DNA from: Thermoplasmata archaeon | Lineage (GTDB): Archaea; Thermoplasmatota; Thermoplasmata; Lutacidiplasmatales; UBA184 | Assembly (NCBI GenBank): GCA_021817245.1 | Contig: JAKAVQ010000002.1 | Location: 14,721 to 78,720 of the forward strand | Direction: 5' to 3' | DNA: 64,000 nt | Shown here: piece after piece, positions 12,682-18,208 of the stretch | Layout: every line of letters begins with the position of its first letter | Numbering within the stretch: the first letter of the stretch is position 1 | Notes under the pieces: model-generated | What the model was told of the DNA's origin: nothing | Seen by the model: only the letters and a program-made list of their open reading frames with translations | Databases searched by the model: none | Made by a program: the position numbers and the translations under genes

Positions 12682-13332
12682 ATGACCAAGGAGACCGCCT
12701 CGATCGCCCGTCGCGTCCACGCCCACCTCGACGCGCACCCCGCCCTCGCGGACGCGATCCGCCTCGGGATCGCGAACTATTCGGCGGTCGCGCGCCTGGT
12801 CTCGAGCGACCTCGAGCTGCGGCAGACGGACGCCGTCCTGGCCGCCTGCCGCCGCTACCCCCGCCGGCGCGGCGAGCTCTTCCGGGACGCGAACGTGCGG
12901 CGCGTCCTACGCAAGAGCCGCATCGAGACCCGGACGAAGGTCGCCGCGATCACGCTGGGCCAGGGATCGGACGTGCTCCAGCGCCTCGGCGACGTCGTCG
13001 AGGAATTGCTCGACGAGAGCTCGCTCTGCCGGGTCATCCAGGTCTCCCGCGGGACCGTCGTACTGGTCGACGAGGATTCGCTCCAGCGGGTGCTCCGCCC
13101 CCTGCGCGAGGGCCAGGTGATCGGGATCCGCCGCAACCTCATCGAGGTCGCGGTCACGAGCCCGGAGAGCATCGAGGAGACGCCGGGCCTCCTGCGGCAC
13201 CTCACGGGGGTCCTCTCGACCCAGGGGATCAACATCGTCGAGGCCCTCTCGTGCTACACGGACACGATCTTCCTGCTCGACCATGACGACCTCGCCCGGG
13301 CGATCGCGGTCCTGACCCCGGCCCTCCAGTGA
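12682..13332 (+). CDS. HTH + ACT-domain putative amino-acid-responsive regulator (COG2150-like)
   Basis: N-terminal helix-turn-helix (GIANYSAVARLV). C-terminal ACT-like fold (…PGLLRHLTGVLSTQGINIVEALSCYTDTIFLLD…). Divergent from the arg operon. Confidence 0.55.
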   Translation: MTKETASIARRVHAHLDAHPALADAIRLGIANYSAVARLVSSDLELRQTDAVLAACRRYPRRRGELFRDANVRRVLRKSRIETRTKVAAITLGQGSDVLQRLGDVVEELLDESSLCRVIQVSRGTVVLVDEDSLQRVLRPLREGQVIGIRRNLIEVAVTSPESIEETPGLLRHLTGVLSTQGINIVEALSCYTDTIFLLDHDDLARAIAVLTPALQ

Positions 13333-13402
13333 GCGCGGAGGCCGGTAACACCTTTTGGAAAGAGCGCATAACCTTAAGTGACGCCCCTCGTTCGTCGGGC
13401 CG

Positions 13403-14548
13403 ATGACCGTGGCCCCCGGGGCGTCGGACCCCCACGGCCTCGCCCTCACGAGATCGGAGAAGGCCACCGTCGTGCTCCTCTACGCGCTGATCCTCGCGGC
13501 GACGGTCGGGGCGTTCGCCGCGGCGTTCGCCTACCTGCCGCACCATTACCCCGGCGAGCTCACCGGCGGAGGGCTCATCTTCAGCGGCCTCGCGATCACC
13601 GCGTACGTCCTCGGGGTTCGCCACGGCTTCGACGCCGACCACATCGCCGCGATCGACAACACGACCCGCAAACTCCTCAATGACGGGAAGCGTCCGCTCA
13701 CGGTCGGGACGTGGTTCTCGCTGGGCCACTCCACGATCGTCAGCGGGATGATCGTCGCGCTCGTGGTCGCGCTCAACTTCATCAACCAGAACTACCACAC
13801 CTTCGCCTCGGTCGGGGCGGTCCTCGGGACCGCGGTCTCGGGCGTCTTTCTCCTGATCATCGGGCTCGTGAACGTCCTGATCGTCGTCGAGGTCTATCGC
13901 ATCTTCCGGGGCCTCCGCGACCGTCGGCTCGACCAGAAGGCCCTCGACGAGCAGATGGAGAAGCGCGGGTTCCTCTACCGCTACTTCGGCCGGCTTTTCC
14001 GGATCGTCAACGAACCGTACCAGATCTATCCGATCGGAGTCCTGTTCGGGCTCGGGTTCGACACCGCCACCGAGGTCCTCCTCATCGGGATCGCGGTCTA
14101 CTTCGGGGGCACCGGGGCGTTCCCCCTCTGGGCGGTGCTGATCCTCCCGCTCCTGTTCACGTGCGGGATGGTCCTCTCCGACACCTCGGACGGGATCGCG
14201 ATGCGCTACGCCTACGGCTGGGCGTTCGACCAGCCGATCCGCAAGGTCTACTACAACCTCACCCTCACCGTCCTCTCCGTCCTCGTGGCGTTTGCGATCG
14301 GCGGTGTCGAGCTCCTCCAGGTGCTCTCGGCCGAGCTCGGCTGGTCGGGACCGTTCTGGACGTGGCTCGGCGGCCTCAGCTTCGAAGCCCTTGGGGTCGG
14401 GATCGTCGTGCTGTTCGTGGGGGCCTGGCTCGTCGCCCTCGCCATCTATCGCGTCAAGCACTACGAGGAGATCGGCTTCGGACCTGTCGAAGCGGTGAGC
14501 CCCCCCGCCGAGGCGTCGGCGCCCCTCGCGCCGTCGGGCGAGCCGTGA
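13403..14548 (+). CDS. NiCoT family nickel/cobalt transporter (HoxN/HupN/NixA)
   Basis: HGFDADHIAAID and GLGFDTATEV signature motifs, 8 TM segments. Preceded by AT-rich cataaccttaagtg. Confidence 0.9.
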   Translation: MTVAPGASDPHGLALTRSEKATVVLLYALILAATVGAFAAAFAYLPHHYPGELTGGGLIFSGLAITAYVLGVRHGFDADHIAAIDNTTRKLLNDGKRPLTVGTWFSLGHSTIVSGMIVALVVALNFINQNYHTFASVGAVLGTAVSGVFLLIIGLVNVLIVVEVYRIFRGLRDRRLDQKALDEQMEKRGFLYRYFGRLFRIVNEPYQIYPIGVLFGLGFDTATEVLLIGIAVYFGGTGAFPLWAVLILPLLFTCGMVLSDTSDGIAMRYAYGWAFDQPIRKVYYNLTLTVLSVLVAFAIGGVELLQVLSAELGWSGPFWTWLGGLSFEALGVGIVVLFVGAWLVALAIYRVKHYEEIGFGPVEAVSPPAEASAPLAPSGEP

Positions 14549-15015
14549 CCCGCAAGGTCGTACGGCTGGGCGTCTCGCTCGAACCCGAGCTGGTCGACCT
14601 GCTCGACCGCTGGGTAGCGCGACGCAACAGCCGGAGCCGCTCGGGAGGGATCCGGGCGCTGATCCGCAAGGAGCTCAGCGAGCGGACCCTCGCCGACCCC
14701 GACTCGGACGCTCTCGGGGTGGTGGCGCTCCTCTACCGCCACGATACTCCGAACGTTCTCGTGCGCCTCACCCGGGCCGAACACCGGTGGGGCGAGCACG
14801 TCCGGTCCACGTCGCACGTGCACCTCGAGGGGGACGCCTGCGCGGAAGTGGTCGTGCTCGCCGGCCGTCGCCGGGAGATCGAGACCGCGGCCGAGGACCT
14901 GCGGGGCGTGAAGGGGATCCTCGACGGAGGGTGGCTCGTCACGACCCCCGCGGTCGCCGGCGGCCGGACCGGGCATCGCCATCCTCACGCGGCCCCCACC
15001 GGCGAGGCCCGGTGA
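14545..15015 (+). CDS. nikR: nickel-responsive transcriptional regulator NikR
   Basis: GTG overlapping NiCoT stop (GTGA). N-terminal ribbon-helix-helix (KVVRLGVSLEPELVDLLDRWV…). C-terminal metal-binding domain with H…H…C (…HVHLEGDAC…). Confidence 0.85.
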   Translation: MTRKVVRLGVSLEPELVDLLDRWVARRNSRSRSGGIRALIRKELSERTLADPDSDALGVVALLYRHDTPNVLVRLTRAEHRWGEHVRSTSHVHLEGDACAEVVVLAGRRREIETAAEDLRGVKGILDGGWLVTTPAVAGGRTGHRHPHAAPTGEAR

Positions 15016-16166
15016 CCCCGCGGGCCCCCGGCCGCGGGCCGGACGCGCTCGCGGCCCTCGTCCTCGACCGGTACCTCGGCGTCCGACGACGCGAGACCGT
15101 CACCGTGGAGACGTGGAGCCACGCGCTCGAGTGGGCCCGCGCGTTCGTCCTCGAAGCGCGTCGCCGCGGCGCGGAGTCGTTCCTGGTCGTCGAGGACGAA
15201 GCGACGTTCTTCCGGTCGCTCGCCCTTTCGGTCCCTTCGCTTCCCGTCGCCCCGTCCCGGCTCGCGGGCCACCCAGGGGCGTACGTCTACTTCGGCGGCC
15301 CCGAGGCGTTCCCCCGACTCCTGGGCCTTCCCGTCCACGACGTGGAGGCCCTCGTCGCCCGGCACGGCCCGGCGTGGTGGCGGCGGGCGCGCCGCTCGGG
15401 CCTGCGCGGCGTCCGGATGGCGATCGCGAGCGTCACGGCACCGGCCGCCGCCCGGTACGGCGTCGACCTCGCCGCCTGGCATCGAGAGGTCCTGCGGGCG
15501 AGCCTCGTCGACCCGGCCCGGCTCGCCCGACGCGCGCGCGAGCTCGCCGGCCCCCTCGGGCACGCGCATCACGTCACCGTCCGCCACGCGAACGGGACCC
15601 GGCTCGACCTCGCGATCGAGCGCGGCTCGCTGACCTTGGCGGACGGCCGGGTCCGGGCGGCCGCTCCGACCGTGCGGGGGTCATGGACCCAGGTCCCGAC
15701 GGGGTTCGTCGCCGTGCGCCTCGCGGACGGCGTTGCCGAGGGGACCTGGGAGTCGAACCGCTCGGCGTACGACCGATTCGCGGACGCGCCCGTCGCAGTG
15801 GGGGCGCGGTTCTCGTTCGCGGGCGGACGCCTCGTGGAGTTCTCGTTCGACCGCGGCGGGGAAGCGTTCCACTCGGCGTACCGGCGGGGAGGGCACGGGC
15901 GGAACCGGCCCACCGCGCTCACGATCGGGCTGAACCCCGCCGTCGATCGCGCCCCCGAGGTCGGCGAGCTCTCGGACCGCACGGTCGGGCTGTTGCTCGG
16001 CGACAACCGCTCGCTCGGCGGGCGGAACCGGGCCCGCTTCGGCTACCTGACGACGCTCGGCGGAGCCCACGTGGAGCTGGACGGGCGGCCGTGGTGGGTG
16101 GACGGGCGCGTGGTGCGCGCGTCGGCACGCCGAGGGGGAGTCCGATCGGCCGATCGGCGGACGTAG
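15012..16166 (+). CDS. M29 (AmpS/aminopeptidase T)-like metallo-aminopeptidase family protein
   Basis: GTG overlapping nikR stop. …ALVLDRYLGV…TVETW… N-terminus and QVPTGFVAV resembling the M29 N(I/L)P(S/T)GE(V)F motif. Assignment is moderate. Confidence 0.5.
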   Translation: MTPRAPGRGPDALAALVLDRYLGVRRRETVTVETWSHALEWARAFVLEARRRGAESFLVVEDEATFFRSLALSVPSLPVAPSRLAGHPGAYVYFGGPEAFPRLLGLPVHDVEALVARHGPAWWRRARRSGLRGVRMAIASVTAPAAARYGVDLAAWHREVLRASLVDPARLARRARELAGPLGHAHHVTVRHANGTRLDLAIERGSLTLADGRVRAAAPTVRGSWTQVPTGFVAVRLADGVAEGTWESNRSAYDRFADAPVAVGARFSFAGGRLVEFSFDRGGEAFHSAYRRGGHGRNRPTALTIGLNPAVDRAPEVGELSDRTVGLLLGDNRSLGGRNRARFGYLTTLGGAHVELDGRPWWVDGRVVRASARRGGVRSADRRT

Positions 16167-16175
16167 GGAGCCCGC

Positions 16176-17195
16176 TCACCGCCCAACGCGGGCCCCCTCC
16201 TTCGCTTCGTCGAACGGCGCCGACGGCCGGACGGCGGAGGGCGAGGGATCCGGGGAGCCGTGCCCGGACGAGGGGGCCGGGAGGCGACGGGCGAACTCGC
16301 GCAGGAGGTCGGCGGCCGGCTCGAGGTGACGCGCGGAGACCTGCTCGACGTTGACTCCGAGCGGGACGCTCAGGTCCTCCGCCCGCGCATCCGCGACGAC
16401 CGACTCCCAGACCTCGACGGCGCGCGCCGCGCTCCGCCGGGCGGCTTCGGCGTCGTCCCCCTCGAGGATCGTCCTCTCCGCCGAATCGGGGAGGTCGGCC
16501 CCGAGCCAGCGGACGAACTCGATGTCCGCTTCGTCCGCGATCGGGGCGAAGCTGAGCAGCACGGCGGACGGAGGGATCGACGCGAGCCGGCAGAGCAGGT
16601 CGTACTGGCGGACCATCTGGACCGTGAGGTCGGCGTCGAAGAGGAGCTGCGTGGTGAAGAACGCGGCGCCCGTCCTCGTCTTCGCCAGCATCCGGTGCGG
16701 CTCTCCGACGCGCTGGGGGATCGCGATGTTGCCGAGGAGCCCGCCGACGGCGCGGAAGACGGGCCGGCAGACCCCGTTCGCCTCGGCGACCGGAGGGCCC
16801 GGGTACGGGATGTAGCGGCTCGCTCCGCCGACGAGAACGACATGGCGGATGCCGTGCGCGACGGTCTCGCGTCCCCACCGCTCGAGCGCGTCGGCGCTCT
16901 CGAGGTACGCGACGACCTTGTTGATGACGGCCGGGCGGCCGGTGCGGTCCTGGAGCGCCCGGGCGAACGCGCGCAGGTCCCCCGAACGGTAGTGGGGCTT
17001 TCCCTCGTGGTTCTCGTCCACGAGCTCGGGAACGTCGACCGCGTCGACCCGCCCGACCGAACGGACGAGCGCGCAGACCGCCTCGACGCGTTCCTCGATG
17101 CGGGCCGCGCCCGCCCGCGACGGAGGAGGGACCGGCTCGAAGAAGAGGGGGAAGGCGCGGAGTGCCTCCGTCAAGGGTCGCCCCGCGTCCGTCAC
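16176..17195 (-). CDS. methylenetetrahydrofolate reductase (MetF)-like protein
   Basis: FPLFFEPVPPP (cf. MetF FEFFPP), HGIRHVVLVGG (cf. NGIRHIVALRGD), FFTTQLLFDADLTVQMVRQYD (cf. ITQFFFD…). In-frame GTG 17195 proposed as start; upstream 70 codons of the ORF look non-coding. Confidence 0.55.
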   Translation of the reverse strand: MTDAGRPLTEALRAFPLFFEPVPPPSRAGAARIEERVEAVCALVRSVGRVDAVDVPELVDENHEGKPHYRSGDLRAFARALQDRTGRPAVINKVVAYLESADALERWGRETVAHGIRHVVLVGGASRYIPYPGPPVAEANGVCRPVFRAVGGLLGNIAIPQRVGEPHRMLAKTRTGAAFFTTQLLFDADLTVQMVRQYDLLCRLASIPPSAVLLSFAPIADEADIEFVRWLGADLPDSAERTILEGDDAEAARRSAARAVEVWESVVADARAEDLSVPLGVNVEQVSARHLEPAADLLREFARRLPAPSSGHGSPDPSPSAVRPSAPFDEAKEGARVGR

Positions 17196-17374
17196 GTTCC
17201 GTCCCGGGACACCTCGGATTCGGACGGAGGGCGCGATAAATCGTTTCGTCTCCTCCGGCTCGTTGCGAAGGACGCAAGCGGCGGTCGCCGGGAGCAACCG
17301 GCGCCCGGGCCGCTCGCAACGCGACCGAACGGCCGGACCCTTAGGTTCATCCGAGCGACCGGTCTTCCCGCGGC

Positions 17375-18208
17375 GTGCCGCCCCGACCCGCCGCGCGACG
17401 CCCATCGGCCGGGCCGCGGCTCGGCGACCCGCGGGCGCGCGTCCATATCGCGCCGGTCGGGTTCGAGATCGAGCGGATCACCGAGCCGATCGAGGCCGAG
17501 CGCGCCGACCGTGTCTACCTCATCACCCGGGCCGAACACGACCAGGCGGCGCCGTTCGTGGAGGAGGTCGTCCGTCGCCTCGGGTCGAGCTCGTGGCCGG
17601 TCGAGGTTCGCGTCGTCCGCACGGACCTCTGGAACGTCTTCGGCGCCCTCGCGGTGCTCCGGACGATCTTCGAGAACGAGCGGCGGACCGACCGGAACGC
17701 GTCCGACGTCCTCCCAATCCGGGTGAACGTCTCGACCGGCACCAAGATCACCGCGATCGCGGGGACCCTCGCCTGCATGCTCTGGAAGGGCGAACCGTAC
17801 TACGTCCAGGTCTCCCGGGCCTGGTACTCGGGCCGACTGCCCCGGGTCGCCGCGGTCCACGACGTCGTGGACCGGATCGATCCGGTCGGCGTGTACGCGC
17901 TGCGGGCCCCCGCGCCCGAGCTGGTCTCGGTCCTCGAGGCGCTCCAGCGGCGGGGCGGCTCGCTGCGCAAGCACGAGCTCCTCCGGGAGCTCGGGCTCGA
18001 CCGCCGCGGCCCCGGCGGAGCCCCCGCGGCCTCGCCGCAGGCGCAGCACGGACGCCTGCGACGCCGCCTCGAACCGCTCGAGATCCGGTGGGGGTTCGTG
18101 CGGTCGGAGGCCCCCGGGCCCCGGGCCCGCGTCACGCTCACCGAGCAGGGACGCGTCGCGGTCGCCATCTTTGGGCGGGTCGGCCCGCCCCTGCCCGATA
18201 TTCACTGA
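17375..18208 (+). CDS. HFX_2341-family putative transcriptional regulator (DUF6293 N-domain + C-terminal wHTH)
   Basis: RVHIAPVGFEIERI… matches the family signature (HIVPVGFDYDRI). C-terminal winged helix (…SLRKHELLRELGLD…RVTLTEQGRVAV). Confidence 0.7.
   Translation: MPPRPAARRPSAGPRLGDPRARVHIAPVGFEIERITEPIEAERADRVYLITRAEHDQAAPFVEEVVRRLGSSSWPVEVRVVRTDLWNVFGALAVLRTIFENERRTDRNASDVLPIRVNVSTGTKITAIAGTLACMLWKGEPYYVQVSRAWYSGRLPRVAAVHDVVDRIDPVGVYALRAPAPELVSVLEALQRRGGSLRKHELLRELGLDRRGPGGAPAASPQAQHGRLRRRLEPLEIRWGFVRSEAPGPRARVTLTEQGRVAVAIFGRVGPPLPDIH

Follow-up and report, generated by a model that had tools for sequence, protein, structure and literature searches.

The window analysed here, that is, the whole stretch of 64,000 nucleotides (64 kb) of contig JAKAVQ010000002.1, comes from the metagenome-assembled genome (MAG) of an uncultured soil or peat archaeon of the Thermoplasmata, with 73% G+C in its DNA, and it carries, one after the other on the forward strand, the three open reading frames (ORFs) that are the subject of this study. 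ORF1 (13403-14548, 381 aa) encodes a nickel(/cobalt) permease of the NiCoT/NicO family, recognised by its Pfam NicO match and its motifs; ORF2 (14545-15015, 156 aa) encodes the ribbon-helix-helix (RHH) repressor NikR, with RHH_1 and NikR_C domains; and ORF3 (15012-16166, 384 aa) encodes a protein which, according to a structural model and to profile comparisons, has the M29/NicX fold without the five canonical metal ligands.

An initial annotation of this DNA had joined the three genes by two GTGA overlaps, and both can be read directly: at 14545-14548 the GTG start of nikR (14545) overlaps the TGA stop of the permease gene (14546-14548), and at 15012-15015 the start of ORF3 overlaps the stop of nikR. 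A 4-base overlap is the commonest operon junction, which points to co-transcription and coupling but is not unusual per se, and it is repeated in relatives, between NikR and ORF3 in some 22 loci and between NicO and NikR in about 20. High-GC DNA yields many long spurious ORFs, and the codon-position composition was therefore checked: the G+C content of the third position (GC3) is 0.94, 0.89 and 0.92 in ORF1, ORF2 and ORF3, respectively, that of the second position (GC2) is the lowest in each, and the flanking argG and ACT genes have a similar composition. The long overlapping ORFs at 13229-14461 (reverse strand) and at 13711-15015, 14787-16166 and 15113-16354 (forward strand) are without the pattern GC3 > GC1 > GC2 and, judged by it, are artefacts of the G+C richness of this DNA. 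That ORF3 might itself be such a spurious frame was also considered and rejected, given its GC3 and its 216 homologues. The overlaps are confirmed, and the three real genes are taken to constitute one co-transcribed and translationally coupled unit, as predicted from their junctions.

The product of ORF1 matches Pfam NicO (PF03824) over almost the whole profile (positions 3-285 of 287) with 301 bits, the cut-off being 27.7, and an E-value (E) of 9.6e-90; in NCBIfam it reaches 376.2 bits with NicT (NF052500), below the curated cut-off of 450, and 329.1 bits with TIGR00802, just below the cut-off of 333.05. On these scores it is a divergent member of the NiCoT family (Transporter Classification 2.A.52) and not an equivalog of the mycobacterial NicT. 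The signatures of the family are RHA(V/F)DADHI in the second transmembrane segment, LGHS in the third, LGFDT(A/S)TE and GMxLxDTxDG, and the protein has their counterparts in RHGFDADHI (residues 73-81), LGHS (107-110), LGFDTATE (from 217) and GMVLSDTSDG (255-264), together with approximately eight hydrophobic segments. That nickel would be its substrate is suggested by one feature, the adjacency of NikR.

In the product of ORF2 an N-terminal RHH_1 domain (2e-5) is followed by a C-terminal, ACT-like NikR_C domain (1.1e-16), and the protein aligns over its full length to the solved NikRs of H. pylori, P. horikoshii and E. coli (2CA9, 2BJ1, 1Q5V) with E between 5e-16 and 3e-13; it is nonetheless divergent, its best NCBIfam NikR score of 97.7 bits falling just short of the equivalog cut-off of 105 (NF003381). 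The high-affinity nickel ligands of NikR are H76', H87, H89 and C95 in E. coli, and H88, H99, H101 and C107 in H. pylori; H80, H91, H93 and C99 of ORF2 align to these four positions and are invariant in 11 orthologues. The NikRs of this clade also extend past NikR_C with the sequence PAVAGGRTGH(H/R)HPH (in the window at 14941-14988, residues ~133-148), and the window protein has a conserved, His-rich C-terminal tail, GGRTGHRHPH (139-148); within the extension the residues P135, A138, G139, G140, T142, G143, H144, H146, P147 and H148 are invariant in the 11 orthologues, and it could serve as an extra metal-binding tail. The identification of a Ni/Co permease followed by NikR, already made in the initial annotation, is therefore borne out by domains, ligands and motifs alike. 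Its view that a nikR within the transporter operon is unusual has to be abandoned, the contiguity of nikR and its nickel transporter being the classical arrangement (PMC2667541; PMC545781).

The third gene required a longer route. Taken alone, ORF3 has no match at E<=0.01 when scanned against Pfam and NCBIfam, and its match to Pfam M29 (PF02073) covers 52 residues, with E 0.028 and 13.7 bits as against a cut-off of 27; because of this weak match the label M29-like, given to the gene in the initial annotation, needed the support of profiles and structure. The 216 homologues come essentially all from Thermoplasmata MAGs and from soil or peat metagenomes, and 32 of the 40 that were aligned do match PF02073 at E<=0.01, the best at 1.1e-9, so that a profile check of 15012-16166 against M29 is below threshold for the window protein, while most of the aligned relatives do reach E<=0.01. 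Comparison of the family with M29 by hhalign gives a probability of 96% in local and 98-99% in global mode. An AlphaFold2 model built on the 40-homologue alignment (predicted local distance difference test 88.5, predicted template modelling score 0.86) retrieves with Foldseek, as the only significant folds in the PDB, PepS, AmpT, AmpS and NicX (E 1e-18 to 1e-16; 4icr 1.1e-18, 2ayi 1.3e-17, 1zjc 1.1e-16), with template modelling scores of 0.6-0.68. In PDB sequence searches the single protein gives noise, and the family profile gives only NicX, at E 0.15. Membership of ORF3 in the M29 structural superfamily is thus supported by family profiles and by a predicted model: the two-domain fold is that of AmpS of S. 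aureus (1ZJC), AmpT of T. thermophilus (2AYI) and PepS of S. pneumoniae (4ICQ), with which the motifs GTDL and P(T/S)G are held in common. Unlike those peptidases, at 13-18% identity, ORF3 lacks the metal ligands and has conserved motifs of its own, GExVTIETWSHxLPWA, EDE, RHxNGT, WESNRPxYDR, GLNP and APE.

The di-metal centre of AmpS, said to have been described by Odintsov et al. in 2005, has E253, E319, H348, H381 and D383 as its ligands, and all five are kept in the eight of eight canonical M29 sequences of our reference set, which were taken from plasmid records with a numbering offset of +3 relative to AmpS. In a profile-profile alignment they lie opposite F232, A302, G326, a gap and G344 of ORF3; an independent hmmalign places the ligand columns identically, with H-x-D opposite G344 and an insertion, and P0270, an intermediate and more distant homologue which keeps the five ligands, validates the columns. 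Residues 336-348 of ORF3, GGRNRARFGYLTT, are devoid of His, Asp and Glu, and no coordinating residue occupies the five columns in 40 orthologues and 15 paralogues. The 2,5-dihydroxypyridine dioxygenases NicX and Hpo, Fe(II) enzymes, share the fold (7CN3, E 1e-17), and some ORF3 homologues have faint matches to Pfam NicX. In NicX, however, the canonical location still holds a metal site: the H-x-D motif of NicX, which we take to be H318-x-D320 (7CN3), lies within CHLD, opposite F-S/G-Y-L in the profile alignment, the window protein having FGYL, with no Fe(II) triad evident; unlike NicX loci, moreover, ORF3 has no context of pyridine catabolism. What these dioxygenases do provide is a precedent for non-peptidase chemistry on the M29 scaffold, since they carry an AmpS-like domain and yet have no aminopeptidase (Leu-pNA) activity (PMC3831237).

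Because all five di-metal ligands are replaced, a canonical Co/Zn/Ni aminopeptidase is not supported for ORF3. The fold proposed in the initial annotation therefore stands and the metal centre that it implied does not, which contradicts the further proposal of a cobalt- or nickel-dependent peptidase. Its strong conservation and family-specific motifs indicate, on the other hand, that ORF3 is a functional, conserved, non-peptidase member of the M29 fold and not a decaying gene. Between residues 28 and 63 there is a near-invariant polar cluster in the N-domain (E28, E33, W35, H37, W41, E48, R50, R51, D62, E63), common to orthologues and paralogues and absent from canonical M29, which is a candidate for a new functional site; in the C-domain H192, E247, N308 and E316 are invariant in the family. 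An exhaustive search for this ligand-poor M29-like family yields 154 clusters (50% identity) at E<=1e-30 and 1048 at E<=1e-3. Among distant ligand-less members, P0140, P0146, P0148 and P0153 are proteins of ~740 aa whose C-terminal part is the M29-like one, and at locus L063 (3571-5946) a 792-aa MFS-GNAT protein stops 7 nt before an M29-like paralogue; these cases hint that other members of the family may be fused to transporters or acetyltransferases. Our search of the literature found no paper joining an M29 aminopeptidase with NikR.

A block of ~38 nt upstream of the permease gene is common to 37 loci (GTgtnAC-g-TTTT-nn-AAA-n-ACgACAT-AAc-nn-TTAWAT), with flanks on both sides that are not conserved. 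In the window it occupies 13345-13379 of the forward strand and reads GTAACAC (13345-13351), CTTTTGGAAAG (13352-13362), AGCGCAT (13363-13369) and AACCTTAAGT. Its 5' part, 13345-13369, would be, by virtue of its conservation across species, a candidate NikR operator (consensus in the 37 loci, GTgtnACgTTTT..AAA.ACgACAT; for example, GTTGTTACTTTTTAAAAAGACAACAT in L022), abutting on its 3' side a probable archaeal B recognition element (BRE)/TATA region, ATAACCTTAAGT (13368-13379, forward strand), for which the aligned loci share the pattern ATAAc..TTAWAT. The start codon of NicO stands at a fixed distance of 40-41 nt past the ACGACAT anchor in the aligned loci, the window ATG at 40 nt, and for this reason a leaderless or near-leaderless mRNA is suggested. 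Many loci have GTGTTAC as the left half-site, and the window has the reverse complement, GTAACAC; these are both orientations of the half-site in the NikR signal predicted for delta-proteobacteria, GTGTTAC-N13/14-GTAACAC, for which reversed half-sites also occur (PMC545781).

As a regular expression, the block has 29 matches in 870 kb of gene-3-seeded genome loci (loci found through the third gene), 29 of 29 just upstream of NicO, and 46 in 455 kb of NikR-seeded loci, 45 of them preceding NicO and the remaining one between divergent NicO and NikR genes; these counts leave aside the variant right half of the window lineage (window, L001, L004), which the expression misses. The single GTAACAC in the 64-kb window, with 0.78 expected, is not significant alone, and a search of 13300-13420 for a long palindrome of the E. 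coli type gave only 6-nt repeats (CTTAAG, at 13373-13378, and CCGGCC/GGCCGG). The initial annotation had advised looking for an inverted-repeat NikR operator in 13333-13402; the conserved candidate box lies in that interval, and its dyad is only partial. Where NicO is inverted with respect to NikR and the third gene, a single box lies between two TATA-like elements (L026 5287-5355, L055 5345-5420, L130 279-304), and from this arrangement one operator might control both divergent promoters.

Gene order was compared in 80 gene-3-seeded loci on GTDB contigs, at one genome per species, plus two from an exact-protein look-up, and in 80 NikR-seeded metagenome loci, 73 of them informative; the two sets may share organisms. 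Orthologues of ORF3 (42-92% identity) are found in 59 of the 82 gene-3-seeded loci and paralogues (32-40%) in the other 23, which have none of the same neighbours and, scanned for functional hints, offered only variable and uninformative ones (MFS-GNAT, DAO, SnoaL, DUF72, BNR). The order NicO, NikR and third gene is that of the window in 38 of 56 informative orthologous GTDB loci; in three NicO or NikR is inverted, in 14 the ACT/DUF7523 gene stands directly upstream of the third gene without NicO-NikR, and in one there is another upstream gene. The third gene directly follows NikR in 59 of the 73 informative metagenome loci, and three loci of that set have NikR and the third gene without NicO. 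The gene order, whose conservation the initial annotation had left to be examined, is therefore widely kept in related genomes. The junction between NikR and the third gene is always tight (-91 to +26 nt, -4 nt in ~22 loci), even with NicO inverted, and the block remains intact despite changes in its upstream flank, as in L002, where Pirin takes the place of the ACT gene.

In L024, L028, L038, L049, L021 and L048, one frame of the spacer between the ACT gene and the third gene still encodes pieces of the NikR C-terminus, such as GHRHPH or GHRHAHD, and the loci without the NicO-NikR cassette are scattered across a quick neighbour-joining tree of the third gene. For these two reasons the comparison points to an order NicO-NikR-third gene that is ancestral in the clade, with NicO-NikR deleted repeatedly; the opposite course, an insertion of NicO-NikR beside an older pair of ACT and M29-like genes, was considered and rejected on account of the same remnants and tree placement. 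Over the loci compared, the association of NicO-NikR with the third gene is common, tight where present, and dispensable in both directions.

The reading of the locus that we favour, with a probability of roughly 0.65, is that of a nickel-responsive, autoregulated nickel-uptake operon carrying, as its third gene, a conserved non-peptidase protein of M29 fold. A single promoter at ~13368-13379 would give rise to a probably leaderless transcript of nicO, nikR and the third gene, and the two GTGA overlaps would couple the translation of the three. At high cytoplasmic nickel, Ni-NikR, holding the metal through H80, H91, H93 and C99, would bind the candidate box at 13345-13369, and as this box abuts or overlaps the BRE/TATA, its occupation would shut off the whole operon; at low nickel the operon would be expressed, the third product included.

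Several points weigh against this reading, some at the operator and others at the third gene. The dyad of the box is partial, with a consensus TGT-N4-TTT-N3-AAA-N4-ACA of which the window has only the inner 4-bp CTTT/AAAG, within 13352-13362, its outer arms not being complementary, and the spacing of the half-sites, unlike that of the published signal, is not N13/14; the box may be no more than an element of a strong promoter. As for the third gene, its only tie to nickel is its position in the operon, and this tie is weak, because several independent deletions of NicO-NikR left the third gene in place, with every one of its conserved residues; because the third gene was deleted in its turn, with NicO-NikR retained, in 14 of the 73 NikR-seeded loci, where NikR is followed by the MTHFR-like or the HFX gene; because no box is seen where NicO or NicO-NikR is absent (none, by regular expression, upstream of the third gene in the 14 GTDB species loci lacking NicO-NikR, and none that is clear upstream of NikR in the three NikR-seeded loci without NicO); and because the surroundings of paralogues in the same genomes are unrelated. 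Finally, the loss of the canonical site may be compatible with a catalytic or metal site elsewhere in ORF3.

The best of the alternative explanations, to which we would give somewhat less than an even chance, takes the third gene to be a pure passenger, a housekeeping enzyme with no relation to nickel that has come to stand behind nikR through the inherited synteny of the clade. The loss in both directions and the constancy of the conserved residues in loci without NicO-NikR would be expected of such a gene; what accompanies it most constantly, moreover, is not NicO but the MTHFR-like gene convergent with it (in 52 of 58 loci), along with the ACT/DUF7523 gene, and the ligand-less superfamily to which it belongs is large, with paralogues among unrelated neighbours. 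Against it, in almost all loci with both genes NikR and the third gene are packed too closely for a promoter to fit between them, their adjacency is kept with NicO inverted or absent (L026, L055, L118, L122, L167), and the block persists where its upstream flank has changed; from this packing, adjacency and persistence it follows that co-expression with the nickel-repressed operon would hold across many species.

A different proposal would make the third protein a new nickel-handling or nickel-dependent protein on the M29 scaffold, for example a cytoplasmic acceptor, chaperone or store of nickel, or an enzyme with a new His/carboxylate site. The tight and conserved coupling behind nikR would favour it, as would the N-domain polar cluster, foreign to canonical M29, and the four invariant residues of the C-domain; there is, however, no Cys, only two His are conserved, the polar cluster is also conserved in paralogues without a nickel context, and the gene persists unchanged after the loss of NicO-NikR, and we consider the proposal unlikely. 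In its strongest form, that of a previously unrecognised nickel-handling component of Thermoplasmata, made along with the importer and only when nickel is limiting, and with a new His/carboxylate site composed from the ETWSH and EDE motifs in place of the lost M29 site, we likewise consider it unlikely. As to an M29 metallo-aminopeptidase dependent on Co or Ni, the supply of which would be co-regulated with the transporter, the fold, the weak-to-moderate Pfam M29 matches, the Joint Genome Institute (JGI) auto-annotation as 'leucyl aminopeptidase (aminopeptidase T)' and the operon shared with a Ni/Co permease all lend it some colour, but it is highly improbable, given that non-coordinating residues take the place of all five ligands, both in two independent alignments and across 55 family members, that the Pfam score of the window protein is sub-threshold and that the M29-domain proteins NicX and Hpo are without peptidase activity.

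Placed beside known systems, the first two genes of the autoregulated operon that we favour are those of textbook nickel homeostasis. In the NikR-regulated NiCoT loci (HoxN/NixA/NicT-type), as in nikABCDE-nikR of E. coli, a nickel permease likewise adjoins nikR and is co-transcribed with it, the known NikRs have the same RHH and C-terminal nickel-binding domains with an H-H-H-C site, and an operator-like element with the predicted GTGTTAC/GTAACAC half-site likewise lies at the transporter promoter (PMC545781). Unlike them, the window has an archaeal promoter of BRE/TATA type with the box directly upstream of the BRE or overlapping it, a NikR with the additional conserved tail GGRTGH(H/R)HPH, and a third gene, unrelated to transport, coupled behind nikR. 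What this part of the locus adds is a candidate operator, obtained by comparison, for an archaeal NikR in an uncultured lineage.

The departure from the textbook case would be the third cistron, a protein with the M29 fold and without its metal centre, whose expression would accompany that of the importer at low nickel. It is also a warning against annotation by fold or by weak Pfam matches, as seen in the JGI name set against a lost metal centre. The ligand-less M29-like family is conserved and comprises hundreds of 50%-identity clusters, and the nickel-repressed operon would offer one experimental handle on it, while the loss in both directions indicates that the link of the third gene to nickel is not obligatory.

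With regard to the genes on either side, a protein with DUF7523 and ACT_7 domains is encoded directly upstream of the operon (12682-13332, forward strand), by a gene that most loci retain as a neighbour. Downstream, convergent with the third gene, there is a weakly matching MTHFR_2-like gene (16176-17405, reverse strand), whose stop is separated from that of the third gene by 9 nt, followed by an HFX_2341/Csa3-like gene (17375-18208, forward strand). As called, the MTHFR_2-like ORF has 409 aa and shares 31 nt with the beginning of the HFX_2341/Csa3-like gene; the call in L001 has 339 aa, and the true start of the gene is probably further downstream than that of the 409-aa call. Beyond the DUF7523/ACT gene lie argG and argH and, in L001, also LysW/LysX amino-acid biosynthesis genes.

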